Origin: a virus
IMG/VR virus record: IMGVR_UViG_3300048836_000035
Length of the DNA: 44,940 bases
Direction: 5' to 3' (one strand)
The notes under the pieces are model-generated. The model saw only the letters and a program-made list of their open reading frames with translations, made no database searches and was not told the DNA's origin. The position numbers were made by a program, and so were the translations under genes. This document shows positions 13,411-36,334 of the stretch, piece after piece; position 1 is the first letter of the stretch, and every line of letters starts with the position of its first letter.

Positions 13411-13453
13411 CCCCGCCACGTCATACGTATGACATGGCGGGGCTTTTTCTTTG
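13411..13453. terminator. Hairpin terminator at the convergence point of both blocks, with the palindrome inside the stem
   Basis: ccccgccaCGTCATACGTATGACAtggcgggg followed by ctttttcttt on the + strand. An A-run precedes it and tatctttatc follows it on the - strand. Confidence 0.8.
13419..13434. promoter_or_regulatory. Palindrome copy (cGTCATACGTATGACa), inside the terminator stem
   Basis: 14-bp core GTCATACGTATGAC is exact. Confidence 0.9.
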
Positions 13454-13628
13454 CCGCTATTTCTTAGTGCCGTTGAACCCGACAGGCAGGGCGGCTCGGA
13501 TCTGAGCCGCATCCTCCTGCCTCAGGTTCGGGAACCGGGTTGCCAACCACTGAGCTAGGCCGTCGGGTTTCACCCCTCTGCGCCACTTCATGATGTGCAG
13601 GTGCGTTGCAATCTTCTGCGCGAACCTC

Positions 13629-14126
13629 TCATGCATCTATCCACGTCGTGTATCGGTCCCACGCCTCCCGTGTATAGAGCCCGTACGGGTGCTCGATGTG
13701 CAGCTGCCTCGCGTTCTCGGCCCAGATGTAATCGTACTCACAGTTCATGTGGTGGCACAGACTCTCTAGGCTGGATCGCAACGGATGGAAGATATCCTCG
13801 TACCAGAACACGGGCAGGTTGTTACCCGTGGCGAAGTCGTACAGCTTCCTGTCCCACTCCCCCACGTCCTCCATAGTGACTGAGTGGTTCAGCTTGACCA
13901 GAGAGCGCCACGCCGAGGTCGGGTCCCGTAGCAGCACGCAAGCTGGTCCCTCCCCATACTTGCGCCACGCCTTCTCAGGATTGTACGCAGCCCCGGTGTC
14001 TACCACCCCGGCGTTAGGCCCCCACAGGAACGGATCCCGGTGCAGGATCGGATCGTGCAGGTACCCGAGATACGACGCTAGCCACGCGCTTCCGCTTCGT
14101 GGGAGCGCCAGTACTACCGGACGCAC
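13629..14126 (-). CDS. Sulfotransferase-like P-loop protein (tentative)
   Basis: GTG start. The N-terminal LALPRSGSAWL resembles the 5'-PSB loop of sulfotransferases. 165 aa. Confidence 0.35.
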   Translation of the reverse strand: MRPVVLALPRSGSAWLASYLGYLHDPILHRDPFLWGPNAGVVDTGAAYNPEKAWRKYGEGPACVLLRDPTSAWRSLVKLNHSVTMEDVGEWDRKLYDFATGNNLPVFWYEDIFHPLRSSLESLCHHMNCEYDYIWAENARQLHIEHPYGLYTREAWDRYTTWIDA

Positions 14127-14613
14127 CTACTGCCCCTCGGAGGTTAGTGAGGTACTCGGCGGTGTCTCGGAGCTTCTGTCGTTCCACGTGAAGTTGCTCG
14201 ACTCGTCTGCGATGATCAGCGAGTTGTTCCTCGATTGCTTCCAGCTGTCTACCCACTGCAACGAGCGAGGATTCGATCCCTGCTTCCATAGCCGCTTTAA
14301 CGCCTTCGACACCCTCCGTAACTGGTACTCCGCTTCCCCCGGACTGTTGGCTACTGGTACCTGCCCCGTCAGGTTCGCTACGAACAACTGGCGTCGGGCG
14401 AGGCGGCGGATTCTCTTTGCGGTCTTCCCTCTCACGATAGGAACTCCTTACTGCATTACACCATGTGATGATCTGGCCACGATCCAGCTTGCCGTCGATC
14501 TTCCCTCGAAGGGGACTTCCGTCCCCGAAGTCGAAGGTGAGGACGCCACCGCGTACGGTGGTGTGCCCCATTATCCGCTGGTCGCTGTCAACGATGTCAC
14601 TTACGTCGACCAT
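14014..14613 (-). CDS. Hypothetical coiled-coil protein (frame uncertain at 3' end)
   Basis: ATG 14613 follows gagg. Contains LEAIEEQLADHRRRVEQLHVERQKLRDTAEYL. Overlaps the next gene by 113 nt and competes with ORF 14127..14435. Confidence 0.4.
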   Translation of the reverse strand: MVDVSDIVDSDQRIMGHTTVRGGVLTFDFGDGSPLRGKIDGKLDRGQIITWCNAVRSSYREREDRKENPPPRPTPVVRSEPDGAGTSSQQSGGSGVPVTEGVEGVKAAMEAGIESSLVAVGRQLEAIEEQLADHRRRVEQLHVERQKLRDTAEYLTNLRGAVGASGSTGAPTKRKRVASVVSRVPARSDPAPGSVPVGA

Positions 14614-15352
14614 ACTCGCGCCTCAAGTAGCCCACATCCAGAGGCATAACAGCGTAGTCGCCGCTGCACACCCCGTTAAGAACCACAATGCCACGCCAGT
14701 GATCATTGCCTTGGAGACCCTTGTACTTCTCGTCGTGGAGATAGAAGGAACCAGCCACCAGACCGTGCCTCGTCCTTCCGGTAGGATAAACCCGATTGCC
14801 GTAGAGGAACCCTTGCTGGTGTCCCTGCACGAAGCTATCACCGATACGGTTGAGTCTGTTGTCAATGGAACCTCCGATTGAGTACGAGGAGTTCTGCTGC
14901 TGGAAGTAGTGCGAGTACACGATGCCGTGAATCCACACGCGCTCCAGAAACGGGTGGCACTCCCAATCCAGAGTGTCCAGATGGTCCATGCTCAAGGCCC
15001 CATCCAGCTTGGCGTCCGACTCGATAGCACGCTCAATCCGATTCTCGTGGTTCCCTCTCAGGATGACCTTACGGGGGCGGTACCGTGCCGTAGTGATACG
15101 GTGGTTGAGTCGTTCAAACGCTTCGTTGCCAACCTCAACGTCCCTGAGGTAACGCTTGCCCTCCATGCTCTTTGACCCGGCCCGGTCGTAGGACGACAGG
15201 CTGGCCATGTCCCAGTGGTCCCCCAGATGCACGATGACGTCCGGCTTGTACTGCAAGATGGCAGCACGCGCCCAGTCCAGATGATGAACCGGCTCGCCCG
15301 GACGGATCTGCGTATCGGGGATGATCAGATGGCGGTGGTGCCGCTTACTCAT
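14597..15352 (-). CDS. Calcineurin-like metallophosphoesterase
   Basis: Motifs IIPDTQ, HLGDHWD and LRGNHENR match metallophosphoesterase motifs I-III. Confidence 0.8.
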   Translation of the reverse strand: MSKRHHRHLIIPDTQIRPGEPVHHLDWARAAILQYKPDVIVHLGDHWDMASLSSYDRAGSKSMEGKRYLRDVEVGNEAFERLNHRITTARYRPRKVILRGNHENRIERAIESDAKLDGALSMDHLDTLDWECHPFLERVWIHGIVYSHYFQQQNSSYSIGGSIDNRLNRIGDSFVQGHQQGFLYGNRVYPTGRTRHGLVAGSFYLHDEKYKGLQGNDHWRGIVVLNGVCSGDYAVMPLDVGYLRREYGRRK

Positions 15353-15509
15353 TCGGCACCTTCGACGCCTGCTCGGCCTCCCGGTTCTCGACGTACTTGT
15401 TGAACTGGTGGATCACCTCGGCAATCTGCATCAGGTCTGCACCCTTAGCGTCGAACCGGGCACCGGCCAGCAGGGACAGTACAGCCTTCAACAACTGAGA
15501 CTCATTCAT
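15345..15509 (-). CDS. Hypothetical protein (54 aa)
   Basis: Start MNESQLL lies close to the upstream stop. Helical. Confidence 0.45.
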   Translation of the reverse strand: MNESQLLKAVLSLLAGARFDAKGADLMQIAEVIHQFNKYVENREAEQASKVPNE

Positions 15510-15855
15510 CGCGGAACTCCTTGGGGCGGTCATCGCCCTCTTGATACTTGGTCTCAAAGTGCACCAGCATCATGACGTTGCAGATGATGTGGGCTAGGTG
15601 CGACTTACCACTCTCTGGGTCGTTGCGCTCCCCCATCCAGTACCACCGGAACAGGTGGCGGAGTATGCACTCGTACGGAACAGACCACGGCATACCCTTG
15701 GCCCAATTCCACGCAGCGTACTTCACCGCCCCGTATTCCCACACGTCCACGACCTCCTTAAGAAGGTACAGTGGCATGAGACTCCACTTCGTCTTGTTGC
15801 TGTTGAAGCGGGCACCGCTGCCGCGCTCCTGACTGGCCACATCGCCTATGCTCAT
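15502..15855 (-). CDS. DUF5664-like protein (dATP/dGTP diphosphohydrolase N-terminal-like)
   Basis: ATGA coupling. EYGAVKYAAWNWAKGMPW...ILRHLFRW resembles that family, recalled from memory. Confidence 0.45.
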   Translation of the reverse strand: MSIGDVASQERGSGARFNSNKTKWSLMPLYLLKEVVDVWEYGAVKYAAWNWAKGMPWSVPYECILRHLFRWYWMGERNDPESGKSHLAHIICNVMMLVHFETKYQEGDDRPKEFRDE

Positions 15856-18718: not shown

Positions 18719-19305
18719 CATTCGTCTCCAAAGGGAATCTCGTCATTGAAGTCCTCGGACTCCGCCACCGGCTCAGCCTCAACCTTGCCGACACCCTTCA
18801 TGCTCTGCTCATAGTAACGAGCAGTGACTTCATCAATGGCGTCGAGGATGATCCCCAACCTAGCGCCCTTGCTAGCATTGCCAAAGACGATGGCCTCGTT
18901 AGCCAGCGCAAGACCAATGACTTGAATCGCTGCTGTACGTGACGCAGAAAGCGTGATACGAGGTTCGACAACTTCGATCTCGCGCTTCTCTTTGTCATCC
19001 CAGTACTTCGCTCTCGCATCCCAGTTCTCCTGCACCTTGCCCGACGTCTTGACTGCCGGGGCACGCGCAGCCGGGGCGGCTGCCACCTTTGTCACCGACC
19101 CTGCGACCAGAGTGCGGTTGCCGTTCTGCTCCTCGTACTCGAACTGAATCGAGTCACCCATGGAGAACGGCGGCTTGTCGGTACCGCAACGGTACCAGCC
19201 CTTGTCGCCCTCAATCTGGAACGAGTAGAGCGTGACGTTGCCGTTACGACCCTTCCAGTCCTTCGCGCTCGTGTTGCTGACAACACCCTTAGTCTGCTGA
19301 CTCAT
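18718..19305 (-). CDS. Single-stranded DNA-binding protein-like
   Basis: Start MSQQTKG follows ggaggaagc, with ATGA overlap to the polymerase stop. Has an acidic C-terminal tip (EDFNDEIPFGDE), typical of SSB tails. Lies in the replication module. Confidence 0.6.
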   Translation of the reverse strand: MSQQTKGVVSNTSAKDWKGRNGNVTLYSFQIEGDKGWYRCGTDKPPFSMGDSIQFEYEEQNGNRTLVAGSVTKVAAAPAARAPAVKTSGKVQENWDARAKYWDDKEKREIEVVEPRITLSASRTAAIQVIGLALANEAIVFGNASKGARLGIILDAIDEVTARYYEQSMKGVGKVEAEPVAESEDFNDEIPFGDE

Positions 19306-21137
19306 GCTGCTTCCTCCATTCTTTCGTACTTGTGTTCTTCGCCTTGGCCCCATCGGTCCCCGACCTTCACGCCGCACCCAAGCGGGCACACAAGGTCAAT
19401 CCCGTACAGCCTATCAATCATCATCCGAGCATCGTCGATCAACGCCTGCCGTGCTAGCGTGTGGAATTCCTCCACCTTTTCGGGGTGCACTTCGGCAATG
19501 ATCGAATCGTGGATCGTGTTCACCAGCGCAATGCCGGGTCGCTCGACCATCTTCAAGCGGTGCCACATACACACCAGAGCCAGAGGTATGATCTCTGCCG
19601 TGGCGAATGCCTGCACCGGGTAGTTGCAGATCGACGTGGTGTTCGTGATGTATCCGCTCCGGTCCATCTTCGTGTCCGGCCAGTAGTAGACCAGACCCCA
19701 CTCCGTCTCCAACTTCTTCTCCATCAGCACCGTGTTGATCCACGTGCCCTGCACCGCCGCCACTCCCTTGTACCTGTCCTTGAAGGCCCGGTAGTAGGTC
19801 TGCTCCGCATCCGTGCCTGAGGACCCACCGTACAGCGGCTTGAAGGTGTGTTCCTTCGCGCCCTGCCGGTCAGTCGGCTGGCCCGCATCCGTCAGTGTCT
19901 TGGACGTAAAGGCGTGGACGTCAACCTTGGCCTGTATGTCCTCGATAGCTTGGTCATCCCGGCCCAAGTGGGCCGCAACCCGGAACTCCAGCTGCGCTCC
20001 GTCTACCTCGCCCATCAGCCAGCCATCACGCTTGGCCTTGAACATCCGCTTGTAGGAGCGGGGTAGGTTCTGGAACTGCGTCTTGTACCTAAGGCCGCTC
20101 GACGACAGGCGGTGCGTTCGGCTCTGCATCTGGTTGAACTGTGCCAGCAGTACACCATCGGCCTCGTCACAGCAGTCCTTGAACTTCCTCATGTACTTGG
20201 TCAGCTGGTTGTGTACGTCCCTGTGCTCAAGGTACAGGTCCATGAACCGCTGCTGATCCTTTGTCGTTACCTTGAGGGACGATATCTCGTCCGCTCCTGT
20301 CATCCTCCGGTTGGTTGCGGTGCGCTTCGGCCCCCACTTCCCGCCCTTCTTGACCCGGTGTTCCTCAAACCCCAGCTTGTCGTACAGGAACTCTGCTAGT
20401 TGTATCGGGGACGCAAGGTTGATACCTCCTGTCATTCGATTAAGTTCGATCACTAGCTCGTCAGCCTTCGTCGATAGCTCGTCTAGTGTCATACGTATGA
20501 CATCTGGATCTAGCTTAAGGCCCTCGCTTTCCAAGTCTGCGAGTACGGGAGTCAGCAAACAACGTGAGTAGACGACTGGCAAAAGACGTGTACCCACCAT
20601 GTCCGTAAGCTGAGCCTTCATCAATTCCGTGAGGGCGGATACGTCCCGCTGGCAGTACTTCTCCAGCCAGCTCGACGGTATGTCCCGCGTGTCTACCCCC
20701 GCCTTGATCATCTTGCTGACCAGCGATACCTTCCCGCCCAGCCCCCGGCGCTGGAGACAGGACTCCAAGGACAACTGTCCGGTCTGCCATCTGTTACCTC
20801 CTATCACGTACTCGGCTAGCATGGTGTCGTACACGAGGACCTCCGACAGGTCCACCCCGCACCGGGCCAGCCATTGTAGTTCAAACTTGGAGTTGTGTGC
20901 CACGATGAAGTCGCACATCTCTACGTCACGAACCAGATCGACCAGATCGAACTCGCTGCCCCACTCCGTCTCCATCTGGCCGTCCCACCCGAACTGCCAG
21001 CAGGCCAGCACGATGCTGTTCTCCTTGTAGATCGCTAGCCCCTTCTCATGGGTGGTAGTCTCGAAGTCAAGGAACAGAGGGATGCCCAGCCGGTACACAG
21101 AGGGATCTGGGTGGGCTACGAAGTCAGGTAGGCTCAC
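19302..21137 (-). CDS. Family A DNA polymerase with 3'-5' exonuclease domain
   Basis: Exo motifs FLDFETT, NSKFELQWL and YCQRDV. Pol motifs DGAQLEFRVAAHL, RQGAKEHTFKPLYG and NTIHDSI. A GTG start at 21137 (gaggtgg SD, GTGA overlap) is preferred over the track's 21329. Confidence 0.9.
   Translation of the reverse strand: MSLPDFVAHPDPSVYRLGIPLFLDFETTTHEKGLAIYKENSIVLACWQFGWDGQMETEWGSEFDLVDLVRDVEMCDFIVAHNSKFELQWLARCGVDLSEVLVYDTMLAEYVIGGNRWQTGQLSLESCLQRRGLGGKVSLVSKMIKAGVDTRDIPSSWLEKYCQRDVSALTELMKAQLTDMVGTRLLPVVYSRCLLTPVLADLESEGLKLDPDVIRMTLDELSTKADELVIELNRMTGGINLASPIQLAEFLYDKLGFEEHRVKKGGKWGPKRTATNRRMTGADEISSLKVTTKDQQRFMDLYLEHRDVHNQLTKYMRKFKDCCDEADGVLLAQFNQMQSRTHRLSSSGLRYKTQFQNLPRSYKRMFKAKRDGWLMGEVDGAQLEFRVAAHLGRDDQAIEDIQAKVDVHAFTSKTLTDAGQPTDRQGAKEHTFKPLYGGSSGTDAEQTYYRAFKDRYKGVAAVQGTWINTVLMEKKLETEWGLVYYWPDTKMDRSGYITNTTSICNYPVQAFATAEIIPLALVCMWHRLKMVERPGIALVNTIHDSIIAEVHPEKVEEFHTLARQALIDDARMMIDRLYGIDLVCPLGCGVKVGDRWGQGEEHKYERMEEAA
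20487..20502. promoter_or_regulatory. Palindrome copy, 16/16, inside the DNA polymerase gene
   Basis: TGTCATACGTATGACA, read in frame as D-V-I-R-M-T-L. Confidence 0.9.
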
Positions 21138-21364
21138 CCCACCTCTACGTCGTTCTTCCAGATGGACGCCTCCTCCCAATCCGAGTGATTGCCACACCGT
21201 CTCAGGTACGCAGGGCCACCGTCCGCTGCAATGAATACCTCGTTCGACCCGTTGTACGCAGCCTTCATCTTGTCGCACGTGTGGGCACGGAAGTCGTGGC
21301 GGAACGCCGACACTACCTCTGCCCCGCAATGCTTGCAGATGATCCTGTTCAGTTCAATCGACAT
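21134..21364 (-). CDS. Small Cys/His zinc-binding protein (76 aa)
   Basis: CKHCG...H..H.C pattern. Coupled to the polymerase gene. Confidence 0.55.
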   Translation of the reverse strand: MSIELNRIICKHCGAEVVSAFRHDFRAHTCDKMKAAYNGSNEVFIAADGGPAYLRRCGNHSDWEEASIWKNDVEVG

Positions 21365-22578: not shown

Positions 22579-23339
22579 TCACTTACCTCAACGTCGGTCA
22601 TGTCTTTGATATCCTTCGGCAACACCAGCACACGGGAGCTACCCCTCATGCCGTACTGCCTCTGGAGCCTAAGCGCCTGCTGCGTGGCATCCGCATCAAG
22701 GGCAATCGCTAGCTCGCACCCACCCCTACGTCGGGCCTCCGTGGCTATCTCGCTCAGAGCCTCGTCGCTTGGGGTACACCCGAGCAGGGCCACAGCCTGA
22801 CGCCCGAGGTACCGCAGTCTCTCTGCCGAGGGGATATCCTCCACCACGTAGATCCGCCCGGGTTGGTATAGATGGGACTCCCTCCGGGTCCACGACTGGA
22901 ACGGCACGTCGTTGCGCAGGCGGGCCGATAGGGTCTTGGGCCTACGGTTGTCCACCGCCCGTAGCACGTAGCCTCTGAGGTCCTCCATAGGCCCGTATAC
23001 GGGAAGCGCCAACCGGTGCGTATCGTCGTCCCACAAGATACCAGACGTCGCAACAGACAGACGCCACTCGTTCACCTTGTCCATCCCGTATTCGGGGATG
23101 TACGCGTTGAACCCGCTGCAATCCCATGGCTGCCACGTCGACGGGGCGGGGCGTGTCATACGTATGACATTGCCCGTGTTGCCGATCACCCCGGCAGCGG
23201 GACAGTTGGCACGGAAGCAATGGTACAACAGCAGTCCGTTCTCCTCGGACAGCTTGATGCTCATGCTCCGCTCGCCGCTCGCCCCGCCGCCGCAGAAGGG
23301 ACAGACCATCCGTATGCTCTGCCCCGGCTCCAGCGTCAT
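22557..23339 (-). CDS. DNA primase (Zn-ribbon + TOPRIM)
   Basis: Start MTLEPGQ. Zn ribbon CPFCGGG...HCFRANC. TOPRIM motifs YVVEDIPSA and AIALDADATQ. The upstream part of the track ORF overlaps another gene. Confidence 0.8.
   Translation of the reverse strand: MTLEPGQSIRMVCPFCGGGASGERSMSIKLSEENGLLLYHCFRANCPAAGVIGNTGNVIRMTRPAPSTWQPWDCSGFNAYIPEYGMDKVNEWRLSVATSGILWDDDTHRLALPVYGPMEDLRGYVLRAVDNRRPKTLSARLRNDVPFQSWTRRESHLYQPGRIYVVEDIPSAERLRYLGRQAVALLGCTPSDEALSEIATEARRRGGCELAIALDADATQQALRLQRQYGMRGSSRVLVLPKDIKDMTDVEVSEWVNANS
23154..23169. promoter_or_regulatory. Palindrome copy, 16/16, inside the primase gene just after the Zn ribbon
   Basis: Read in frame as N-V-I-R-M-T-R. Confidence 0.9.
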
Positions 23340-24144: not shown

Positions 24145-24160
24145 TGTCATACGTATGACG
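24145..24160. promoter_or_regulatory. Palindrome copy, 15/16, 12 nt upstream of ATG 24132
   Basis: The - strand reads CGTCATACGTATGACA-taggagaactgg-ATG. Confidence 0.9.
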
Positions 24161-24270
24161 TATGGTCCGGCACGCCACCGTGCCATGACCCGCCGTCCGC
24201 CCCGGCCTGCCCAACAGGTCCGGGGCTACCGGGTTGAGGGACTCGGGTACGTTCACCCTCGTCCCCCGTA

Positions 24271-24309: not shown

Positions 24310-24329
24310 CGGTGTTAAAAAGAAAGTTA

Positions 24330-25112
24330 CTACGCGCCCTTTACAAGGGCCTCGCGTAGGGCCAGTCCCACGTCACGCACCTTGCGGGACACCGTGGACT
24401 GGTCCATATCGTGCGTCTCGGCAATCTCTGCCTGCGTTTTCTCCTGTACCACAACAGCGTGGTAGATGCTCCACGCTTCCTGTCCGCAGGCCTCGACTGC
24501 CACTCTCTCCAAGAACTCTCGCAGATTCTCTGACACTACATCACTCTCCGGTGTTGCCAATGTTACCGACGTCAGGTACGCGTGAGGCACGTACCCGTTC
24601 CCCATCATCGCAGCCTCAAGCTGCACCAACGGCTCCTCGATTTCCTCCTCGTCACCTGAGTACGGGTCCTCCCCCGGCAGGTCCAAGTTCGCCTCCATGA
24701 TCTCGGGCAGGTGTCCCCGCCCGTCCTTCACCCGCTGCACGTGCATCCACAGACTCCGGTTGAACATGGCCATGAGCGAGGCCACCTGCTCAGGCACCCG
24801 CGTCACGTAGTCCTGCACGTACATCAGGGCGTCCGTTGCCACGTTCGCTGCTTCCTCGTAGTCCATGCCACCCCGTGATGCGCGGGCAACCATGACCTTC
24901 CAGACCAGCGCCCAGACGATGTGCCGAGCCGCGTCATCCCCGGCTACGAACCGGTCCTGATAGGCCCGTACCTTCTTCTCCAGAGCGGACACCCCCTCGT
25001 CGTCCGTGTGCTGCACCCCCGTGGCTCGTAGCTCCATCATGCCCGCCACCCACGTCTTGTGGATCTCGGCACTCTTGGCCTTGTAGTAGTTCTCGTACGT
25101 TCGCTCACTCAT
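24330..25112 (-). CDS. Sigma-70-family (ECF-like) sigma factor candidate
   Basis: Region-2-like IVWALVWKVMVARASRGGMDYEEAANVATDALMYVQDY. Region-4.2-like HTH EKTQAEIAETHDMDQSTVSRKVRDVGLALREAL. Confidence 0.6.
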   Translation of the reverse strand: MSERTYENYYKAKSAEIHKTWVAGMMELRATGVQHTDDEGVSALEKKVRAYQDRFVAGDDAARHIVWALVWKVMVARASRGGMDYEEAANVATDALMYVQDYVTRVPEQVASLMAMFNRSLWMHVQRVKDGRGHLPEIMEANLDLPGEDPYSGDEEEIEEPLVQLEAAMMGNGYVPHAYLTSVTLATPESDVVSENLREFLERVAVEACGQEAWSIYHAVVVQEKTQAEIAETHDMDQSTVSRKVRDVGLALREALVKGA

Positions 25113-26212: not shown

Positions 26213-26288
26213 CACGACGATATAGCAGGATGATTTGAGGCAATGCGATTCGTAGTCATGGATATTTGATCGACTCACGCCGTAGTAA

Positions 26289-27755: not shown

Positions 27756-27767
27756 AGTCCTCTCCTG

Positions 27768-27783
27768 TGTCATACGTATGACA
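27768..27783. promoter_or_regulatory. Palindrome copy, 16/16, between the GATase stop and the ATP-grasp SD
   Basis: Stop at 27786-88. The - strand reads motif-caggagaggact-ATG (27755). Confidence 0.9.
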
Positions 27784-27785
27784 GG

Positions 27786-29198: not shown

Positions 29199-30205
29199 CA
29201 GACTTCTCCTTCCTCGTCAGAGGCTTCGGGTTCTGGTTCGTCGTAAATCTCGTCGTCTTCGTCGTATTCCGGCAGTTCGTCCTCGTCCCCATCCTCGTTG
29301 TCCAGAGTGGCGAACCTCTGAGTGGGCAGCCACGATCCAAGGTCAGGGCCGGGCTCGACCCCCTCGCCCACATCGAACGCACACGGCACTCCCCACCCTG
29401 ACTGTGCGTAGGTCACGGGCTGGAACAGCAGGGCTGTCTCGACCGCACCTAGATCGTGGAGCAGCGCCTCAAGTGCAGAGTCAGGCATATTGATCTGCTC
29501 GTACAGTTCCCCGAACAGCAGCTTGACTACTGCCGCAACCCCTTCCTGTGCGTACAGTTCGATGGGGTCGGGCAGCGTGTAGGCGTTAGCTGTCATACGT
29601 ATGACACGGACCCACGCTTCCAACTGCTCCGGGGTGTCGAACGTCCGAGCGTGCCGGAACTCCAGCGTACCGAACGTGCGCAGCGGACCAGCGAACAGTC
29701 CGCTGTACTTGCACGACTGGCGCAACGAGAACATGTCCCCAGAACGTAGCGCCCTGCTCACCAGCGCCGCCTCGTCGGGTGCCCTGTACCACGGCACGCA
29801 GAAGATGTTTTCCTCGCGCTCCGTGCCAGCCCACAGGAACACCAGCGGCTCGACCATAGCGTAGTACGTACAGATCCGCGCCACTTCATCGAAGGTACGC
29901 CCGAGCATATTGGCGTGGACGTGGATGCCCGTCCGTTCCGACGGCTCCCAATGCTTGCGCGTCTTGCCGTACAGGTAGTGAACGGCAGTCGCCACGTCGT
30001 CGGGTGGCAGGAACTTAGACACGAACTCAGCGCCAGAGTTCCGCAACGAGCCGTCGTCCTTGATGTGCCAGTACTTGGTCATCTTGTTCGCCAGTTCCAG
30101 TCTGGTACCCAAGTCGAACCTCTCGACCTCGACCTCGATGCCGTAGCCCTCGGTCGTGGGCGAGTTGAACTCGTTGGCCGAGTAGTCAGCGACGATAGGG
30201 GTCAT
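29198..30205 (-). CDS. Amidoligase (glutamine-synthetase-like, Amidoligase_2 pattern) with polyacidic C-terminal tail
   Basis: Motifs GIEVEVE, DGSLRNSGAEFVS, TGIHVHAN and GTLEFRHARTFD. ATGA coupling upstream and TGATG downstream. Confidence 0.8.
   Translation of the reverse strand: MTPIVADYSANEFNSPTTEGYGIEVEVERFDLGTRLELANKMTKYWHIKDDGSLRNSGAEFVSKFLPPDDVATAVHYLYGKTRKHWEPSERTGIHVHANMLGRTFDEVARICTYYAMVEPLVFLWAGTEREENIFCVPWYRAPDEAALVSRALRSGDMFSLRQSCKYSGLFAGPLRTFGTLEFRHARTFDTPEQLEAWVRVIRMTANAYTLPDPIELYAQEGVAAVVKLLFGELYEQINMPDSALEALLHDLGAVETALLFQPVTYAQSGWGVPCAFDVGEGVEPGPDLGSWLPTQRFATLDNEDGDEDELPEYDEDDEIYDEPEPEASDEEGEV
29591..29606. promoter_or_regulatory. Palindrome copy, 16/16, inside the amidoligase gene
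   Basis: Read in frame as R-V-I-R-M-T-A. Confidence 0.9.
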
Positions 30206-30867: not shown

Positions 30868-31223
30868 TTTGCACCCTCCATTTGTTGTACGTATGACACG
30901 GACGCGACGTTGACGGGCACCAGTACGAACGCAGCAAGGGCACGCGCCTCTGCTGGCGTCACCTTGCGCTTGGGCGGCTCCGGTGTGGGAGGCGGGATCG
31001 CCGTGCCACTCTCCGGGTACTTCATCTGCACGTGAACGGACTCGACCGGATCACCTTCCAGCGCCACCATCTGCAACGCACGCCGCTCCGCTTCCTCCGC
31101 ACTCAGGCACAGGAACTCGCACATGTACGTGCTGGCGTTCTCGCCTGAGGTAGTCACCTTCACGGTGTACCACTTCAGGCCGAGTTGGTTAGGCGTTTGC
31201 ACGGACGAACTCCCGCTCGTCAT
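30864..31223 (-). CDS. Hypothetical protein (start uncertain)
   Basis: ORF between the GGCT gene and the 221-aa gene. Several candidate starts. Confidence 0.35.
   Translation of the reverse strand: MTSGSSSVQTPNQLGLKWYTVKVTTSGENASTYMCEFLCLSAEEAERRALQMVALEGDPVESVHVQMKYPESGTAIPPPTPEPPKRKVTPAEARALAAFVLVPVNVASVSYVQQMEGAK
30883..30898. promoter_or_regulatory. Degenerate palindrome copy (14/16), 15 nt upstream of ATG 30867
   Basis: tgtTGtacgtatgaca. The right half and flank (atgacacggac) are identical to the copy at 29591. Confidence 0.6.
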
Positions 31224-31623
31224 CGGTCGGCAGCCACACCTGCGTGCCATGCACGTAGTCGACGGACGGCTTGACCGCGAGGTACGAGTGCGGCAGGAAG
31301 TACGCCCACGCTCCCTTCCACGGGGTCTGCACCTTGTGCCGACAGTAGTAGTCGGGGTGGCCCTCGATCATGTCCAGCATATCCAGCTGGCCCTTGCTGA
31401 TCCGATAGACCTCACCGAGGATCAGCGTCTCGGTCTTGTCGGTCGGAGTGTGCACCAGTCCGGGGTAGTAGTGCAGGTCCAGCATCCTGTACTGCCCGCG
31501 CAGCACGCACCGCCCGAGCAGGTCTGCACCTGACAGCGCGGAGTGATTGCCGCGCCCCTGCTTGAGCGATCCGTACACGAACACACGGATGCCCTGCGAA
31601 TCAACCTTCGTTTCATCAGCCAT
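31189..31623 (-). CDS. Gamma-glutamyl cyclotransferase (AIG2/GGACT-like)
   Basis: Motifs VFVYGSLKQGRGNH, YPGLV, LGEVYRI and LDMIEGHPDYY. Confidence 0.8.
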   Translation of the reverse strand: MADETKVDSQGIRVFVYGSLKQGRGNHSALSGADLLGRCVLRGQYRMLDLHYYPGLVHTPTDKTETLILGEVYRISKGQLDMLDMIEGHPDYYCRHKVQTPWKGAWAYFLPHSYLAVKPSVDYVHGTQVWLPTDDEREFVRANA

Positions 31624-32465
31624 TAGAGAATCTCCAGTCCAAAGTCAGACACATACTCCCGCAACTGGTACGCAAGCGTACCGTCTGCGGTCCCAATCGC
31701 ACGTCGCACGTCAGCCCACGGCATCTCGTTGTAGATGCGCCGCACTTCCTGCTCTCCACGCGCCAGCACGCCCATCGCACCGAACGCCATGCTCCCCACG
31801 TGCAGCGCCGAGCGCGTCGTCATGGTCCACGAGTTGCCGAGTGTGCGGTACTCGATCCCGTAGCGGGTAGGTCGGTAGCGTCCGGGGCTGCCGTAGAACT
31901 GCCGACGCTTGCCCTGATTGTCCATGTTGTGGACCAGAGCAGGCAGCCCGATCATCAGGTCGCAGATTGTGGCAGCCACGAAGTCGGGGCACTCCCACCC
32001 GAGGTATTCGCGGTAGCCCAAGTGGACGTGCCCACCTGCGAAGCGCCACGCTCCGCCCGGTTCCGTCAACTCGGACGGCTGGATGCGGGGCAGCGGAGCG
32101 CCCTGCTCGTAGGCGTTGAAGTCCGGGCTGCACCCGAACATCTGCGCCTGAGGGTTGGCGAGGGCCGCCTCGTTGAAGAACACCGAGCAGTCCGGCCACG
32201 CCTGCACCCCCGGCACCGTCTGCCGCAGCTTGGCAAGCGCCAACTGCCTGCCTCGCACCACCACGTCCGCGAAAGAGTGCGGGTCGGACACGGGCGGCAC
32301 GTTGTACTCCGCCATCACGTTGTCCTCTTGCACCGCGAACCCACTTCCGGCCCCGCCAACGGGGATCGGTTTGTCCTTCGTCCCACCGAGCAGCCCAACA
32401 ATGGGCAGCACGCTGTTCCCATCACGAGTGATGAAGAACTCAGGATCAGCGCCTATCGTGAACAT
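31623..32465 (-). CDS. phiEco32-type COOH-NH2 ligase (type 2 amidoligase)
   Basis: MFTIGADPEFF...VQEDNVMAEYNVPP...GCSPDFNAY...FAGGHVHLG...RYGIEYRTLGNSW matches the family pattern, recalled from memory. Confidence 0.8.
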   Translation of the reverse strand: MFTIGADPEFFITRDGNSVLPIVGLLGGTKDKPIPVGGAGSGFAVQEDNVMAEYNVPPVSDPHSFADVVVRGRQLALAKLRQTVPGVQAWPDCSVFFNEAALANPQAQMFGCSPDFNAYEQGAPLPRIQPSELTEPGGAWRFAGGHVHLGYREYLGWECPDFVAATICDLMIGLPALVHNMDNQGKRRQFYGSPGRYRPTRYGIEYRTLGNSWTMTTRSALHVGSMAFGAMGVLARGEQEVRRIYNEMPWADVRRAIGTADGTLAYQLREYVSDFGLEIL

Positions 32466-32478: not shown

Positions 32479-32494
32479 TGTCATACGTATGACA
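32479..32494. promoter_or_regulatory. Palindrome copy, 16/16, between stop 32496 and the SD/ATG at 32465
   Basis: The - strand reads motif-aaggagaaggcag-ATG. Confidence 0.9.
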
Positions 32495-33496: not shown

Positions 33497-33512
33497 AGTC
33501 ATACGTATGACA
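33497..33512. promoter_or_regulatory. Palindrome copy, 15/16, overlapping a stop codon and preceding the SD/ATG at 33485
   Basis: The - strand reads TGTCATACGTATGACT-ggagaatcgaa-ATG. The TGA of the 58-aa gene lies within the motif. Confidence 0.9.
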
Positions 33513-33675
33513 TTTCCGACGTTGTGGACTCGACTTCCCGACGCAGTTCAGCCGTGAGGCGCGCTCTCATATCTGCGAAGCGCCCGTGCTTGGACAGGTT
33601 CGGGTAATCGTGCTTGGCCCTACGCTTCGCCTGCCTGTGCCTGCGAACGTAGGGATTGCGAGATTTGCGGCTCAT
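33499..33675 (-). CDS. Arginine-rich basic protein (58 aa)
   Basis: MSRKSRNPYVRRHRQAKRRAKH... ATGA coupling upstream. Its stop codon lies inside palindrome copy 33497-33512. Confidence 0.5.
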   Translation of the reverse strand: MSRKSRNPYVRRHRQAKRRAKHDYPNLSKHGRFADMRARLTAELRREVESTTSEMSYV

Positions 33676-33848
33676 CCCCGCAGCACTCGCGTAACAATGT
33701 ACACCGCAAGCAAGGGAAAGCCAAGCAGCGGCATGGTGAAGCACAGGACAATCGCCACGATGAGTGCCAGCAACGGCAACGCAAGGCAGGCAACTATCCA
33801 TGACACCACGATGAGCAGCAGCATGGCTCCCAACATTTCGGCAATCAT
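33672..33848 (-). CDS. Small two-TM membrane protein (58 aa, below track cutoff)
   Basis: SD ggaggg. MIAEMLGAMLLLIVVSWIVACLALPLLALIVAIVLCFTMPLLGFPLLAVYIV. Confidence 0.5.
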   Translation of the reverse strand: MIAEMLGAMLLLIVVSWIVACLALPLLALIVAIVLCFTMPLLGFPLLAVYIVTRVLRG

Positions 33849-34048
33849 TTCTCAGCCCTCCAAAAGTGTTTGAACCGAGCGGCTATATCGTCATACGTAT
33901 GACACCTGCCGCTCGCAGGTAGCAATACGGGACATACCAGCAGAATCCACGTGCCGGGGTATGTCCAATCCCACGGCATGGCCCACAATTCCGCCATCTC
34001 GTGCGCCCATACCGCGAGTGCAGTCAGGCACACAAGCAAGCGGTTCAC
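33845..34048 (-). CDS. Small membrane protein (67 aa)
   Basis: GTG start 1 nt after the previous TAA. Hydrophobic segments. The palindrome lies in its 3' part, read as C-H-T-Y-D. Confidence 0.4.
   Translation of the reverse strand: MNRLLVCLTALAVWAHEMAELWAMPWDWTYPGTWILLVCPVLLPASGRCHTYDDIAARFKHFWRAEK
33889..33904. promoter_or_regulatory. Palindrome copy, 15/16, 40 nt upstream of ATG 33848
   Basis: cGTCATACGTATGACa. Lies in the 3' end of gene 33845..34048. Confidence 0.9.
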
Positions 34049-34659: not shown

Positions 34660-34669
34660 GTTGTCACCT

Positions 34670-34685: not shown

Positions 34686-35048
34686 TTAGGCCCGGACCAA
34701 CTGGACGGGTATGCCCCGCAACGTCGCTGCACGGGTCCAAGCAAGTGCGTACAGCGCATCCTCATGTGAGTACACGTTGCCGTCAACGTGGACTTCCCAC
34801 TCCGCCCCACGTGGGCGCAAGTCGCGACCTCGCAGGAATGAATCAATGGACCAATCCGCCATTGCGACCGCAGCGCCCCAATGCGAGCGCGTAGTCTCGC
34901 AGCCCGGATTGAGCGGGGTACGTACAAGCATCTGCGGCAGCACAGCTAGGTGCAGCGGCAGCGGCTTGATGCCACGCGGCTTGCCGACTGTCTTAGTCCG
35001 TGTGGCCCTGCCTTGCGGCTTGGCCCGGAACTTGGTGGAACGTGTCAT
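34686..35048 (-). CDS. Hypothetical basic-N-terminus protein (start uncertain: 35048 or 35081)
   Basis: The ATG at 35048 is the ATG inside the palindrome (MTRSTKFRAKPQGR...). The alternative ATG at 35081 lies ~10 nt from the predicted TSS. Confidence 0.4.
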   Translation of the reverse strand: MTRSTKFRAKPQGRATRTKTVGKPRGIKPLPLHLAVLPQMLVRTPLNPGCETTRSHWGAAVAMADWSIDSFLRGRDLRPRGAEWEVHVDGNVYSHEDALYALAWTRAATLRGIPVQLVRA

Positions 35049-35058
35049 ACGTATGACC
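35043..35058. promoter_or_regulatory. Palindrome copy, 15/16, ~35-50 nt downstream of the predicted sigma-70 promoter
   Basis: TGTCATACGTATGACc. Its ATG (35048) is in frame with ORF 34686..35126. Confidence 0.9.
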
Positions 35059-35097
35059 TTTTGGCCCTTTTCATCAAACATTACTACCAGAGTGCAC

Positions 35098-35126
35098 ATT
35101 ATGACACATTGGGCGCAAAAAGTCAA
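35098..35126 (-). promoter_or_regulatory. Sigma-70-type promoter with extended -10
   Basis: The - strand reads TTGACT (35126-35121), a 17-nt spacer ending in TGt, then CATAAT (35103-35098). Confidence 0.65.
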
Positions 35127-35177
35127 TAGATGGGCGTATTCGGTTTTGGGCGCATCTTGGGCGCAGTCTTGGGCGCA
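35109..35177. repeat. Array of five TTGGGCGCA 9-mers (one variant ATGGGCGTA) around that promoter
   Basis: Copies at 35109-17, 35130-38 (variant), 35146-54, 35157-65 and 35169-77. The last three are 11-12 bp apart. Confidence 0.85.
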
Positions 35178-35230
35178 TCCCTATTCCCGCGCCTTACGCG
35201 AGCGGCTAGCGCGGGTACAAATCGCGGACC

Positions 35231-35264
35231 AAAAAAAAGCCCCCGATCCTTTCGGACCGGGGGC
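35231..35264 (-). terminator. Rho-independent terminator after the first leftward gene
   Basis: The - strand reads gcccccggtccgaaaggatcgggggc followed by tttttttt. Sits 17 nt after the stop at 35281. Confidence 0.85.
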
Positions 35265-35280
35265 AATTGGTGCGCGTGAG

Positions 35281-35976
35281 TTACGCGGCTTTCTTTGTCT
35301 CGCCAGCTTCGCCCGTTGCGATTGCCAGCACGTGCGCGAGAATCTTTTGAGTCTCAACGCAGTCGGCCACGGTCAGGGCCGGCGCGGCTTTCGCAATCTG
35401 CTCGCACAGCAGAACCACGGACGCGCGAGCCTTGTCCGCCTCGGACATGGTAGCGGCCGCAGTCTTGGCAGCCTCCGCCGCCTCCGCCTTGCCTTTCGCA
35501 TCGCGAATCTTGCCGAACGTGAGCGGCTTGCCGTCCTTGTCCGTCAACTTGACGCCGAGCTTATACGCGCCCGTCATCATGCTGACCGCCGTTGACAGTC
35601 CCCGCGGCACGTTGTAGGTCACGGTCCCGTCCTTGCGCGGCTTGGATGCCGAGCAATTGCACGCGACCGCTATCCCGTCCTTATTGCTGGAAATGTCAGC
35701 CTTCCAGCCTTCCCACGCCGTCGCGAAAGTCTCGGCATTGCCAGCTTCGACCGCGATCAGAACCGCTGCGTCGTAGTTGCCGGTCCGGTCCTTATTCAAG
35801 GCGGCCTGTCCAATCTCCACGTTACGCGCGGAGACTGTCGCAGCCTTGAGCATATCCCGCAAATGCGCGAGCTTGCCGGCAACACTTTCTTCCGTGGTCG
35901 GCACTACTCGCGACGTTGCGACGTTGCTGGAAACGACCACGGGCGAACCCTTGCGGCTTGTCTTAGCTTTGCTCAT
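35281..35976 (-). CDS. Early protein of unknown function (231 aa)
   Basis: First ORF of the leftward block. A/K/T-rich. Followed by its own terminator. Confidence 0.65.
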   Translation of the reverse strand: MSKAKTSRKGSPVVVSSNVATSRVVPTTEESVAGKLAHLRDMLKAATVSARNVEIGQAALNKDRTGNYDAAVLIAVEAGNAETFATAWEGWKADISSNKDGIAVACNCSASKPRKDGTVTYNVPRGLSTAVSMMTGAYKLGVKLTDKDGKPLTFGKIRDAKGKAEAAEAAKTAAATMSEADKARASVVLLCEQIAKAAPALTVADCVETQKILAHVLAIATGEAGETKKAA

Positions 35977-36318
35977 TTTCCATTTCCTTTCATTGGTGGA
36001 TTGTGGCTTGCCTTTCCTGTGCTCGCGTAGCAGGCAGCAAGCCCGTAGTCGCTACGCAAGCCGCAAGGATTCCGCGCGTAGCCTTTCCGCTACGTCCGGT
36101 CCTTGCGCTAGTTGTTAAAGAGCATCCGACGATGCTGTACCGTTGCCGACCTAGCGCCCCATCAATCCGCGCGGCATCCCGCGCCCCATGTCCGGGCCTA
36201 TCAGTCAGCTAGGGTTTTAAAGAGCATCAACGTAGCGTGAAGCTACAGTTGCCGTTATACGCGCATCCGGCACGCAATGCAATACCCGAGTGCAAAAAAA
36301 TTCCGGGCCGTTCTACCT

Positions 36319-36334
36319 TGTCATACGTATAACA
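36319..36334. promoter_or_regulatory. Palindrome copy, 15/16 (core G to A), at the head of the leftward block
   Basis: TGTCATACGTATaACA, 343 nt upstream of ATG 35976. Confidence 0.8.

Follow-up and report, generated by a model that had tools for sequence, protein, structure and literature searches.

A repeated palindrome in the early/middle arm

The stretch of DNA analysed here (the window, 44,940 nucleotides) is the 45-kb genome of a lytic-type phage. Its late arm contains the terminase, portal, major capsid and tail genes, and its leftward early/middle arm, transcribed by the host RNAP, holds 13 copies of one 16-bp palindrome. A search of the whole window with GTCATACGTATGAC recovered 11 exact copies and two imperfect ones, at 36320 (1 mismatch) and 30884 (2 mismatches). 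In 100 dinucleotide shuffles a mean of 0.06 matches was obtained, with a maximum of 1, so that the over-representation described in the initial annotation was upheld by the recount. The leftward arm (13.4-36.4 kb) makes up 51% of the window and contains 13/13 copies (P = 0.512^13 = 1.7e-4); their absence from the rightward structural block was likewise confirmed, with 0 copies in the late arm. The copies are spaced 0.4-7 kb apart along the arm and are densest at its head. Their homogeneity within the genome is extreme. The copies and the early promoter are as follows.

13420..13433, exact copy, forming the apex of a longer G+C-rich stem (GCCCCGCCA..TGGCGGGGC) where the two arms converge
20488..20501, exact copy, in the PolA coding sequence, codons ~213-217 (VIRMT)
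23155..23168, exact copy, in the primase coding sequence
24146..24159, exact copy, between a conserved non-coding leader 3' of the sigma gene and the Shine-Dalgarno of a 75-aa gene (ATG 24132)
27769..27782, exact copy, after the stop codon of the glutamine amidotransferase gene and before the ATP-grasp Shine-Dalgarno
29592..29605, exact copy, in the amidoligase coding sequence at about aa 219, also present in lineage L061
30884..30897, hybrid GTCATAC/GTACAAC, at the 3' end of a 128-aa ORF, 16 nt before ATG 30867
32480..32493, exact copy, after the stop codon of a 329-aa gene and ahead of the COOH-NH2 ligase Shine-Dalgarno
33498..33511, exact copy, overlapping the stop codon of an Arg-rich 58-aa gene, 12 nt before ATG 33485
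33890..33903, exact copy, intergenic, 41 nt before ATG 33848, kept in L061
34671..34684, exact copy, between the stop codon of a basic-protein gene and ATG 34659, kept in L061
35044..35057, exact copy, starting 41 nt past the -10 box of the early promoter and containing the probable ATG of the basic-protein gene
35098..35126, minus strand, strong sigma-70-type early promoter TTGACT-17-tgCATAAT, preceded by a terminator at 35239-35264
36320..36333, copy with 1 mismatch (GTTATACGTATGAC on the minus strand), at the arm head, upstream of a 231-aa gene

The earlier list of copies was correct for the 11 exact sites and for the single change at 36320; the site given as 30883 starts at 30884, and the half-site proposed at 34611 is at chance level, isolated GTCATAC being seen 2 times against 3.6 expected. 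Nor is the 30884 copy degenerate, as had been thought. It shows no decay and combines one window-type half-site with one GTTGTAC-type half-site, a hybrid kept as such in L061. Placement between genes held in part: with curated gene calls, 9 of the 13 copies are not wholly within an ORF in an arm where non-coding DNA amounts to 7.9% (P = 7e-8), but those at 20488, 23155 and 29592 lie within coding sequences. At the six junctions singled out previously, close spacing to the start codon was found again, at 11-16 nt rather than the 10-15 nt first given. The copies reported in the convergent-junction stem (13420), downstream of a good sigma-70 promoter (35044) and at the head of the leftward block (36320) were all recovered. 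The last of these lies within a CGGGCC/GGCCCG stem followed by a T run, and its counterpart in L061 is exact.

Orthologous sites and lineage-specific sequences

A palindrome of its own, 12-17 bp long and present in 4-18 copies in the same arm as in the window, was found in each of at least 18 related lineages of uncultured phages and in the cultured Stenotrophomonas phage StenR_269; 0/40 shuffled loci reached 3 copies. The scan of relatives at syntenic junctions, suggested as a check on the motif, found sites at orthologous positions with a sequence that differs between lineages. Coincident site pairs across lineages numbered 21, against 1.5 expected. Most copies in the relatives are intragenic. 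Within PolA, a palindrome proper to L066 shares the alignment column and frame of the window site at 20488, column 320 carries a site in 2 lineages, and codons 3-4 carry one in three, with a fourth nearby in L189. Primase columns 132-134 hold a site in five lineages with 4-5 different motif sequences, all in frame 0; other shared positions are COOH-NH2 ligase column 117 (4 lineages), amidoligase column 401 (3 lineages) and the C-terminus of the 5'-3' exonuclease (2 lineages).

Junctions between genes behaved similarly. Own palindromes were found in L065 at the junction equivalent to 13420, in L066 and L211 at that of 27769, and in L064 at that of 30884, near which L065 and L066 also have sites; L386 and L388 have no palindrome at the spot of 24146. 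On either side of the 329-aa gene, the counterpart of GTCATACGTATGAC in L062 and L063 is GTTGTACGTACAAC, within conserved flanks, exactly at the position of 32480 and also at that of 33498. Among close relatives, the change from GTCATAC to GTTGTAC is symmetric and occurs at the same junctions. At the level of sequence comparison, it is shown that the position of a site is inherited and that the half-site sequence switches in concert over all sites of a genome.

The promoter arrangement at the head of the window arm is conserved in the relatives. Across 8 lineages, which use 6 different motifs, the -10 box of a near-consensus sigma-70 head promoter is followed by a site at 37-49 nt, and in L098 seven sites are packed into the non-coding head region. 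The 231-aa head gene is flanked by sites in several lineages, in either orientation of the gene. Some sites, at 2580 and 2726 in L098 and at 36320 in the window, lie upstream of the mapped early promoter.

Between the window and L061 the motif differs at 1 position in 112 nt while the flanks are 13.2% divergent (P = 2e-6). From this alignment, the palindrome is shown to be under purifying selection for its exact sequence. Together with the lineage-own versions at orthologous positions, this supports the earlier preference for sequence-specific recognition over a generic hairpin. Even-length motifs are all palindromic through the centre (ACGT, TATA, CTAG, CATG, ATAT), and in odd-spaced motifs the central bases are free. 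Relative to transcription, asymmetric copies point either way in nearly all lineages; in L194 the asymmetric centre has a 10:1 orientation bias. Isolated half-sites are not enriched, and no directional flank element was found around the sites, conservation being limited to the palindrome. This symmetry argues for double-stranded DNA as the form that would be recognised.

Candidate binding proteins

No recognisable dimeric DNA-binding domain was found in any protein of the arm. Its sole clear HTH protein is the sigma factor, which does not co-vary with the motif. Genes considered as the source of a binder include the following.

24330..25112, minus strand, divergent phage sigma factor (ECF-like)
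34686..35054, minus strand, first gene after the early promoter, encoding a basic 122-aa protein with a very basic N-terminus (MTRSTKFRAKPQGRATRTK...), candidate binder
35281..35976, minus strand, 231-aa head gene in its own transcription unit, candidate binder

The sigma factor was rejected, since its region-4 helix shows no co-variation with the motif. The 231-aa protein has no family or PDB match. For both head proteins the structure models were too poor for use, and neither gene was detected in every motif-bearing lineage. As for the small proteins put forward in the initial annotation, the 73-aa protein (23687-23908) does have an HTH-like look but is found in just 7 lineages, no supporting evidence was obtained for the 25456-25719 protein, and the Arg-rich 58-aa protein is nearly unchanged between lineages with different motifs.

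Operator and alternative interpretations

Three roles had been proposed for the palindrome, and that of operators for a dimeric DNA-binding protein fits best, because the centre is palindromic, copies occur in both orientations, the hybrid is conserved, half-sites are not enriched and the distance to the promoter is conserved. Our tentative interpretation, plausible but with slightly less than even confidence, is that the palindrome serves as operator for a dimeric DNA-binding protein of two-fold symmetry, lineage-specific and most likely phage-encoded, which controls or roadblocks the early arm. Several points speak against it. In a lytic phage with apparently one main early promoter, a dozen roadblocks are not obviously needed, and an operator centred near +40 is unusual. 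The six window sites that adjoin a Shine-Dalgarno look also as expected of an RNA-level element, and the presence of the 16-mer as a repeat core in one bacterial MAG makes a host factor possible.

An action of the palindrome as a short hairpin in the long early/middle transcript is unlikely, though not negligibly so. Such an element might serve in RNA processing or stability, as RNase III sites do between the early genes of T7, or be bound by the small Arg-rich protein (33499-33675), as boxB of lambdoid phages is by the N protein, and might control decay, antitermination or translation of the downstream gene. The Shine-Dalgarno alone separates six window copies from the start codon, a placement also seen in L062, L063, L066 and StenR_269. 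In 8 lineages the early transcript has its first site about 35-45 nt from its start, within the 5' leader, a position that we take to be comparable to that of nutL. Changes between lineages are compensatory by construction, small Arg-rich ORFs lie upstream of the 329-aa gene in several lineages, and UACGUA (central loop plus closing pair) is common to the window and L062, the two having near-identical Arg-rich proteins. The orientation bias in L194 also favours RNA, and sites in StenR_269 adjoin tRNA genes (one copy lies 7 nt before such a gene) and precede terminators, as would fit processing boundaries. Yet the hairpins, at -4.1 kcal/mol in the window and between -2 and -3.5 in several lineages, are weak as well as too short for RNase III, the conserved hybrid cannot fold into one, and Rfam gave no family match. 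A loop needs no self-complementarity, whereas every even-length motif is palindromic through its centre, and asymmetric variants found in both orientations would give a wobble pair one way and a mismatch the other. With the mostly intragenic copies of the relatives, the tRNA-adjacent copy and the sites 5' of the mapped early promoter, the earlier idea of an RNA hairpin abutting each RBS is weakened.

Recognition by a host protein, each lineage carrying the site type of its own host or a mimic of a host repeat, is improbable. The GTTGTACGTACAAC type is common to the mutually distant lineages L098, L112, L062, L063 and L386, while L064, to which the window is nearer than to several of these, has another motif. 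In one Blastochloridaceae MAG, a 34-bp palindromic repeat with at least 18 occurrences has the exact 16-mer as its core, and the 16-mer also occurs in promoter-like contexts in Paracoccus and DPANN archaea. Against this, the 50 genome matches in 596 Gb are at or below chance, and with just 65,536 possible 16-bp palindromes a coincidence with some repeat family is not unlikely. The MAG-repeat and other matching contigs have no genes in common with the window, the phage carries the 16-bp core alone and not the 34-bp element, and a specificity change in a host global regulator is rare between hosts whose phages are 78% identical in a neighbouring protein. Somewhat more improbable still are N4-like promoters, in which an extruded DNA hairpin, formed by the palindrome, would be read by a phage single-subunit RNA polymerase starting 13-15 nt past its centre, just at the Shine-Dalgarno. 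In LUZ7, hairpins act as the early and middle promoters, and transcription starts 13-15 nt from their centre (PMC9163698). The nearly fixed spacing to the start codon agrees with this, as does StenR_269, which has the same amidoligase-primase-helicase-PolA arm, a putative virion RNA polymerase, and TTTAACGTTAAA ahead of a tRNA as well as of genes. However, scanning all large ORFs of the window revealed no RNA polymerase gene of any kind, the phage encoding instead a sigma factor for the host RNAP; directional information is lacking at the sites, asymmetric copies occur in both orientations, many sites lie deep within genes, and the late arm has none.

The least probable explanation is a selfish or recombinational element that spreads or homogenises by gene conversion and marks cassette-exchange boundaries, with no regulatory role. 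Recombination between repeats gave deletions in Cluster O mycobacteriophages (PMC4351075), 16 nt at the 24146 site seem to have been gained recently by comparison with L386 and L388, and the extreme homogeneity of the copies within the genome also agrees with this explanation. The cassette-boundary role proposed at the outset nevertheless finds little support, as many sites occupy conserved positions within conserved genes and are kept over deep divergence, essential genes included. Indels relative to a 99% identical relative of the window are not motif-flanked, the window contains neither target-site duplications nor associated nuclease or transposase genes, and purifying selection extends to the hybrid, non-palindromic copy.

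The operator interpretation has its closest precedent in Cluster O mycobacteriophages, whose unexplained 17-bp palindromes are interpreted in the same way by the authors of that work (PMC4351075); stoperators (PMC6550527) and KorB operators (PMC11790492) are further precedents. The analogy drawn earlier with the stoperators of mycobacteriophage L5 holds as a functional likeness and not as family membership. A binder acting at such operators would be made early, the candidates being the two conserved head genes (231 aa and basic 122 aa), which are flanked or overlapped by sites, as expected for autoregulation. Its co-evolution with the palindromes of each lineage would fit the data. Where spacers allow, further copies are intergenic; the others occupy conserved positions within genes, and we infer that Shine-Dalgarno adjacency results largely from fitting a 16-bp element into tiny intergenic spacers. 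By occupying its sites, the protein would block or modulate transcription through the arm, with a roadblock just past the early promoter that is repeated along the operon, and these roadblocks may bring about the early-to-late switch. It would probably also exclude superinfecting phages of the same type, and competition among related phages may have driven the specificity switches observed.

A palindrome of the leftward arm

A search of the window with GTCATACGTATGAC, allowing up to 2 mismatches, returned 13 sites. Eleven are exact (13420, 20488, 23155, 24146, 27769, 29592, 32480, 33498, 33890, 34671 and 35044), and the two others carry 1 mismatch (36320) or 2 mismatches (30884). In most copies a flanking T and A widen the motif to the 16-bp palindrome TGTCATACGTATGACA. 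Dinucleotide shuffles of the window gave a mean of 0.06 copies, and all 13 copies were found at 13.4-36.4 kb, within a leftward block whose share of the window is 51% (P = 1.7e-4). The over-representation and the confinement to one arm, both proposed in the initial annotation from the sequence alone, are thereby confirmed, as is its exclusion of a CRISPR array, the spacing being irregular (0.4-7 kb) and the copies lying within and between genes. At the six gene junctions that it singled out, a start codon does closely follow the motif, at a spacing of 11-16 nt instead of the 10-15 nt first given. According to curated gene calls, 9 of the 13 sites are not wholly intra-ORF, though the non-coding share of the arm is just 7.9% (P = 7e-8). 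A mobile palindrome of the REP/MITE kind was considered and discarded, conservation being limited to 16 bp and positions being kept inside genes. A restriction or methylation site was dismissed by reasoning: the sites are enriched, not avoided, and any palindrome has a 6-bp palindromic core.

Rightward genes (terminase, portal, major capsid, tail fibre, internal virion proteins) leave the right end of the window and resume at its left end, which makes the window probably a closed genome whose two arms converge. The leftward arm carries genes for replication proteins (PolA, a DnaB-like helicase, primase, 5'-3' exonuclease, endonuclease I and a dNTP pyrophosphohydrolase) together with a phiEco32-like amidoligase / glutamine amidotransferase / ATP-grasp / GGACT cluster, which is kept throughout the clade and in the cultured Stenotrophomonas phage StenR_269. 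It also encodes a sigma factor resembling phiEco32 gp36; at this position L191, a related uncultured lineage, has a sigma-70/ECF family match (12733-13500, E = 4e-23). The presence of a phage sigma factor implies late transcription by the host RNA polymerase carrying it. No RNA polymerase, integrase, repressor, partition gene or ParB was found among the window ORFs scanned. The features of the arm discussed here are as follows.

24330-25112, minus strand: divergent ECF-like sigma factor; at the same position relatives have clear sigma-70/ECF family proteins
26973-32465, minus strand: phiEco32-like peptide-modification or amidoligase cluster (ATP-grasp protein, glutamine amidotransferase, amidoligase, GGACT protein, COOH-NH2 ligase)
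35126-35098: strong promoter TTGACT-17-tgCATAAT; a site begins 41 nt past the -10 box
35264-35239: terminator upstream of this early promoter

The mechanical PolA ORF (19302-21329, minus strand, 675 aa from a TTG) is too long, homologues having about 611 aa, and ATG 21137 is the probable start. A distinct small ORF at 21134-21364 has its match in a DUF7695-type gene of a relative.

INPHARED contained no near-identical phage, and none of the deposited phages is a close relative. Among cultured phages, the PolA proteins nearest to that of the window belong to StenR_269 (43.5% identity), Xanthomonas phage DES1 and Vibrio phage VpV262, and thousands of metagenomic PolA homologues lie on contigs of about 43-46 kb with a gene order matching that of the window. 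A metagenome scan using the 329-aa protein family found nothing. The sole close IMG/VR relative, IMGVR_UViG_3300048590_000038 (L024, L013), is 99% identical and for that reason uninformative. It has an extra ~172 bp at ~33675 (window 33672-33681) and a ~240-bp difference at ~26.2-26.4 kb (26184-26425); neither indel is flanked by a palindrome. In another relative, L061, an extra 61-aa gene separates the membrane-protein gene from the Arg-rich gene.

Palindromes of related phages at inherited positions

Close relatives were reached via the 329-aa protein, whose gene is flanked by two sites, and distant loci were gathered by anchoring on PolA and the amidotransferase, with an inverted-repeat census for each locus. 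At least 18 relatives each carry one over-represented palindrome in 4-18 copies, and none of 40 shuffled loci had as many as three copies. L061 (72% identity) retains GTCATACGTATGAC at syntenic junctions. Purifying selection on the motif is seen in the comparison of the window with L061, with 1 difference in 112 motif positions versus 13.2% in the 60-nt flanks (P = 2e-6). In L062 (78%) and L063 (52%), the same two junctions flanking the 329-aa gene carry GTTGTACGTACAAC instead, with flanks nearly unchanged; the two motifs differ by four symmetric substitutions, a concerted switch of both half-sites. The 2-mismatch copy of the window reads GTCATAC followed by GTACAAC, one half-site of each type, and is kept as a hybrid in L061. 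The palindromes of the other lineages are listed below.

Table. Over-represented palindromes in loci related to the window
TCG(C/T)TTGTATACAA(G/A)CGA: L064, L311
CGTTAAC-N-GTTAACG: L065, L190, L211
CTT(T/G)TACGTA(A/C)AAG (C(T/G)-type): L066
GTTGTACGTACAAC: L098/L191, L112, L386
CTTGTA-NN-TACAAG: L193, L194, L195 (up to 18 copies)
CCTTAACATGTTAAGG: L189
TGTTGTCTAGACAACA: L212
GTTAAC-N3-GTTAAC: L198, L344
TTCACACGTGTGAA: L196, L313
GATTATATATAATC: L188
GTAGTTTAAACTAC: L328
TTTAACGTTAAA, 9 exact copies: StenR_269 (L389, OR838459.1), at 1565, 2480, 3931, 5084, 6708, 11834, 14673, 19966 and 22574

In StenR_269, all nine copies are in the early/middle arm and 7 or 8 are intergenic. Several abut Shine-Dalgarno sequences, one precedes a tRNA gene by 7 nt and two separate a stop codon from a terminator. 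The repeat is not mentioned in the StenR_269 genome paper, and VpV262 has no comparable repeat. In L098 (IMGVR_UViG_3300032087_003052, 1661-3131) the motif was observed inside a longer 26-bp palindrome, AATCRC-GTTGTACGTACAAC-GYGATT; the head region of this locus is mostly non-coding and also rich in short ACGT-containing repeats.

The intragenic sites were placed on protein alignments and were found at orthologous positions. Five lineages have their primase site within the same three columns, all in frame 0, with four or five different motif sequences. One column of the COOH-NH2 ligase is common to four lineages and one of the amidoligase to three. In PolA, the sites of the window (VIRMT) and of L066 (LVRKR) coincide in column and frame, and codons 3-4 hold the own palindromes of three lineages, with the L189 site nearby; a site at the C-terminus of the 5'-3' exonuclease is common to L188 and L065/L190. 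Over nine proteins, 21 coincident cross-lineage pairs were counted versus 1.5 expected (P < 5e-5). Such coincident columns across lineages indicate that the sites are old and that their location matters, and we conclude that coding sequences accommodate the palindrome in use in each lineage. Relatedness alone does not account for motif type, and GTTGTAC-like half-sites are widespread. The GTCATAC half-site of the window looks derived from these, and the hybrid copy looks like a remnant of the switch.

The head of the arm and what may recognise the sites

The site that follows the early promoter of the window has counterparts in other lineages: a near-consensus sigma-70 promoter with a site 37-49 nt later was found in 8 lineages with 6 different motifs, which couples the element to the early promoter whatever its sequence. 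L098 has a perfect TTGACA-17-TATAAT with downstream sites and packs seven sites into a 1.5 kb head region. Site density declines from the head of the arm to its end. The conserved 231-aa head gene stands as a separate unit flanked by sites; in L098 the gene of this family is inverted relative to the arm, yet a site still precedes its ATG by ~40 nt and a terminator follows it. Directly behind the early promoter comes a gene for a protein whose N-terminus is very basic; in the window the palindrome contains the probable ATG of this gene, and in L190 the motif ends 5 nt upstream of the start. The 231-aa gene and the basic-protein gene bear the hallmarks of autoregulated regulator genes.

Neither head gene was detected in all lineages, and neither protein has detectable homology. 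Searches of the window proteins against Pfam, PHROGs, NCBIfam and PDB sequences returned no dimeric DNA-binding protein as binder, PDB profile searches with the 231-aa, basic and 73-aa families returned nothing, and single-sequence AF2 models of the 231-aa and basic proteins (pLDDT 43-48) were unusable. Two small proteins put forward in the initial annotation gained no support as binders, the 73-aa HTH-like protein (23687-23908) having been detected in just 7 lineages and the Arg-rich 58-aa protein (33499-33675) being nearly identical between lineages of different motif. The sigma-like protein was also rejected: sigma factors bind asymmetric promoters, the proteins encoded at the homologous positions of L191 and L193 are bona fide sigma factors, and the region-4 helix differs between two lineages both using GTTGTACGTACAAC. 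Two further phage elements were set aside. Single-element promoters of the phiEco32 type (AATGTA) do not account for sites with no directional flank and no late-arm copies. Nick sites of the tf/LUZ24 type (TACT/RTGMC) have just TATGAC in common with the motif and, by reasoning, a palindrome would give double-strand breaks.

Other repeats were observed around the arm head. Two copies of GATGCTCTTTAA(A/C)AAC(C/T)TAGC, ~100 nt apart, lie in the long leader of the 231-aa gene (~36115-36235, minus strand), and a plausible promoter, TTGCAT-17-TATAAC, is found ~45 nt downstream of the 36320 palindrome. The non-coding region between the arm heads (36300-37400) has dense short repeats when read on the minus strand, including five copies of TTATGT(C/A)A, often followed by ATGGC (36776-36941, minus strand), CATGCCAAG twice (36614 and 36661) and GCATGGCATGGCATGG; TATGTA in this region resembles the phiEco32 gp36 element AATGTA. 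The terminal repeats of VpV262 sit between its two arm heads and, by analogy, the region may hold the physical genome ends, an origin or promoters of the phage sigma factor. A non-coding element of ~110-170 nt, located downstream of the sigma gene (window 24160-24329, minus strand; L386 987-1167; L388 1661-1934), is highly conserved, whereas the sigma proteins of the same lineages are just 40-61% identical. The element includes a hairpin, GCCCCGGACCTGTTGGGCAGGCCGGGGC, and has TTTCTTTTNAACA...TAAAAT ahead of it. It had no Rfam match and weak covariation support in an alignment of three close sequences; it may be a structured leader or a small RNA with its promoter.

Double-stranded DNA is more likely than RNA to be the level of action. 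Motifs of even length are all palindromic through the centre, with five different centres, and odd-spaced motifs have free central bases; a self-complementary centre argues for a dimer on double-stranded DNA, since an RNA loop would have no need of it. In nearly all lineages, asymmetric copies point both ways relative to transcription, L194 (10:1) being the exception, and some sites are upstream of the mapped early promoter. Conservation in the flanks is limited to symmetric extensions of the palindrome. Half-sites on their own show no enrichment, and the one at 34611 that the initial annotation listed is at chance level. An element acting in the transcript would fit the sites that abut Shine-Dalgarno sequences, the first site in the early-transcript leader, the orientation bias of L194 and the small Arg-rich ORF nearby, but a perfect copy folds weakly (-4.1 kcal/mol, 6-bp stem), the conserved hybrid copy remains unfolded and no Rfam family matches the palindrome. 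The RNase III sites of T7 early genes and the lambdoid boxB/N elements likewise lie, in a long early transcript, after a stop codon and ahead of the following ribosome-binding site, and they keep their positions among relatives as their sequences diverge, boxB co-evolving with an Arg-rich peptide. RNase III sites are double-stranded RNA of at least ~20 bp, and a genome has two copies of boxB, whereas here the stems measure 5-7 bp, the copies number 13, many sites are intragenic and the motifs are palindromic through the loop; neither the perfect nor the hybrid copy gives a stable extended double-stranded stem.

Hairpin promoters of the N4 type are a serious analogy because StenR_269, which has the same replication/amidoligase arm and a dispersed palindrome, has a putative virion RNA polymerase. 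Such promoters need a phage RNA polymerase, and their orientation is set by loop and stem sequence, but the sites described here carry no direction, and no RNA polymerase family match was found in the window, whose largest ORFs encode tail/internal virion proteins, the portal and PolA. With N4-type geometry (start 13-15 nt past the hairpin centre), the start would fall at the Shine-Dalgarno sequence. In N4-like phages (N4, LUZ7) the hairpin promoters are short inverted repeats upstream of early/middle genes, and none of the published ones examined is described at conserved intragenic positions (PMC9163698).

Recognition of the sites by a factor of the host has a low probability. The exact 16-mer was found in 50 stretches in 596 Gb of bacterial and archaeal genomes, at or below chance. 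The uncultured Blastochloridaceae MAG CAYTLD01 (L268-L305; GC 53-59%) speaks for a host factor in that it repeats the 16-mer at least 18 times, as the exact core of a REP-like 34-bp perfect palindrome, CATCTTGAAT-GTCATACGTATGAC-ATTCAAGATG, but its contigs have no gene similarity to the window, and this repeat may be a coincidence or a hint to the host. In several DPANN and other archaeal MAGs (L264, L274, L290, L303 and related loci) the 16-mer was seen a few nt downstream of a TATA-like box, and in L264, L274 and L290 the next downstream gene codes for a small Cas2-like protein (MxxLxFDIxR...VQxSVW). In Paracoccus, three species (L258, L287, L297) have the 16-mer at one conserved intergenic site. 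In these archaea and in Paracoccus it looks like an operator of unrelated regulators. Two unrelated phages have what look like classical operator arrays of the same palindrome: three tandem copies of CACCA(T/A)AC(G/A)GTCATACGTATGAC with 28-bp spacing upstream of a gene in the 44.7-kb IMGVR_UViG_3300027881_001057 (L008, 12612-12681), and two copies adjoining an excisionase/AlpA-like HTH gene in L055 (12313 and 12530). No protein in common with the window was found among the neighbours of the foreign 14-mer copies in unrelated phages, bacteria and archaea. The 16-bp palindromes number only 65,536, few enough for coincidences of this kind to be expected; the foreign copies show that the sequence is usable as a protein-binding site.

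Known dispersed repeats and a possible arm-wide switch

The element is real and richer than could be seen in the initial annotation, and it is of a kind that is known but poorly understood. The CIRs of the Streptomyces phage phiC31 are a 17-bp inverted repeat with many copies in the early region, often intergenic and away from promoters, and bound by the repressor; unlike the window, phiC31 is temperate and its repressor gene is known. KorB operators (OB) of the IncP plasmid RK2 are a dozen palindromic copies spread over a mobile element, some located at promoters and others at a distance from any. The window sites resemble this KorB network, but KorB is a ParB-family CTPase (PMC11790492) and the scanned window proteins gave no ParB-like domain or ParBc match.

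Stoperators of Cluster A mycobacteriophages (L5 gp71 and relatives) are copies of one short site, numerous throughout transcribed regions, at which a phage repressor stops elongation, with a lineage-specific consensus that co-evolves with the repressor and is tied to competition among related phages (PMC6550527, PMC9283540). They are asymmetric 13-bp sites, mostly in one orientation and in both arms, bound by the monomeric repressor of a temperate phage (PMC6550527, PMC9283540). A lineage-specific consensus tracking phage relatedness was also found here, and to that extent, and in its functional resemblance, the early comparison with L5 stands. It fails on asymmetry, orientation and a repressor or lysogeny gene: the window sites are perfect 14-16-bp palindromes with no consistent orientation, in one arm, and neither type of gene was found in the window.

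The closest description of the window element is the palindrome of Cluster O mycobacteriophages, a 17-bp sequence, TGTTCGGNNNCCGAACA, present in >30 copies (PMC4351075). Both are short inverted repeats that are invariant within a genome and dispersed in many copies with no consistent orientation. Cluster O genomes have tens of copies, concentrated in short intergenic regions of one leftward arm, some of them intragenic and few near promoters (PMC4351075). The authors regarded them as binding sites of a dimeric protein whose role is unclear (PMC4351075). The phages (siphoviruses of Actinobacteria) and the sequence are, however, unrelated to those described here. Cluster O repeats are genome-wide and one motif is common to five genomes, whereas here the sites are restricted to the early/middle arm, the motif differs by lineage at orthologous positions and the early promoter has a site coupled to it.

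Taken together, we infer that an early protein encoded by the phage binds the palindromes as a dimer. The bound protein would repress, blocking or modulating transcription by the host RNA polymerase just past the early promoter and along the arm. Expression would switch to the late arm, for which the phage sigma factor is presumably responsible, and same-type genomes entering the cell would be silenced. Escape from this exclusion would select concerted half-site switches, and competition between phages would in this way drive the divergence of the motifs. It is possible, if rather doubtful as a whole, that a large clade of ~45-kb podophages, out to StenR_269, carries a genome-wide 'address code' of a dozen symmetric sites at inherited positions, some written into the primase, polymerase and amidoligase coding sequences. 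The code would be rewritten in concert when a DNA-binding protein of novel type changes specificity. It would do two things: switch transcription across the whole arm, and let competing lytic phages exclude one another in an immunity-like manner.

Until now, operator-like repeats of the dispersed kind have been known from a few actinophage groups, among them the still unexplained Cluster O. The present case extends the phenomenon to a large clade of podophages that are of proteobacterial type and apparently lytic, and adds the retention of positions over deep divergence, even in essential genes, with concerted replacement of the recognised sequence. This decoupling of position and sequence lets nature supply a clean experiment on how a protein and its DNA sites co-evolve, and StenR_269, with its nine sites, is a cultured and tractable member of the clade. 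Should one of the conserved head proteins, which have no detectable homology, prove to be the binder, it would represent a new DNA-binding family and give a set of orthogonal protein-operator pairs. If the sites mediate exclusion among related lytic phages, the logic of immunity groups would reach past temperate phages.
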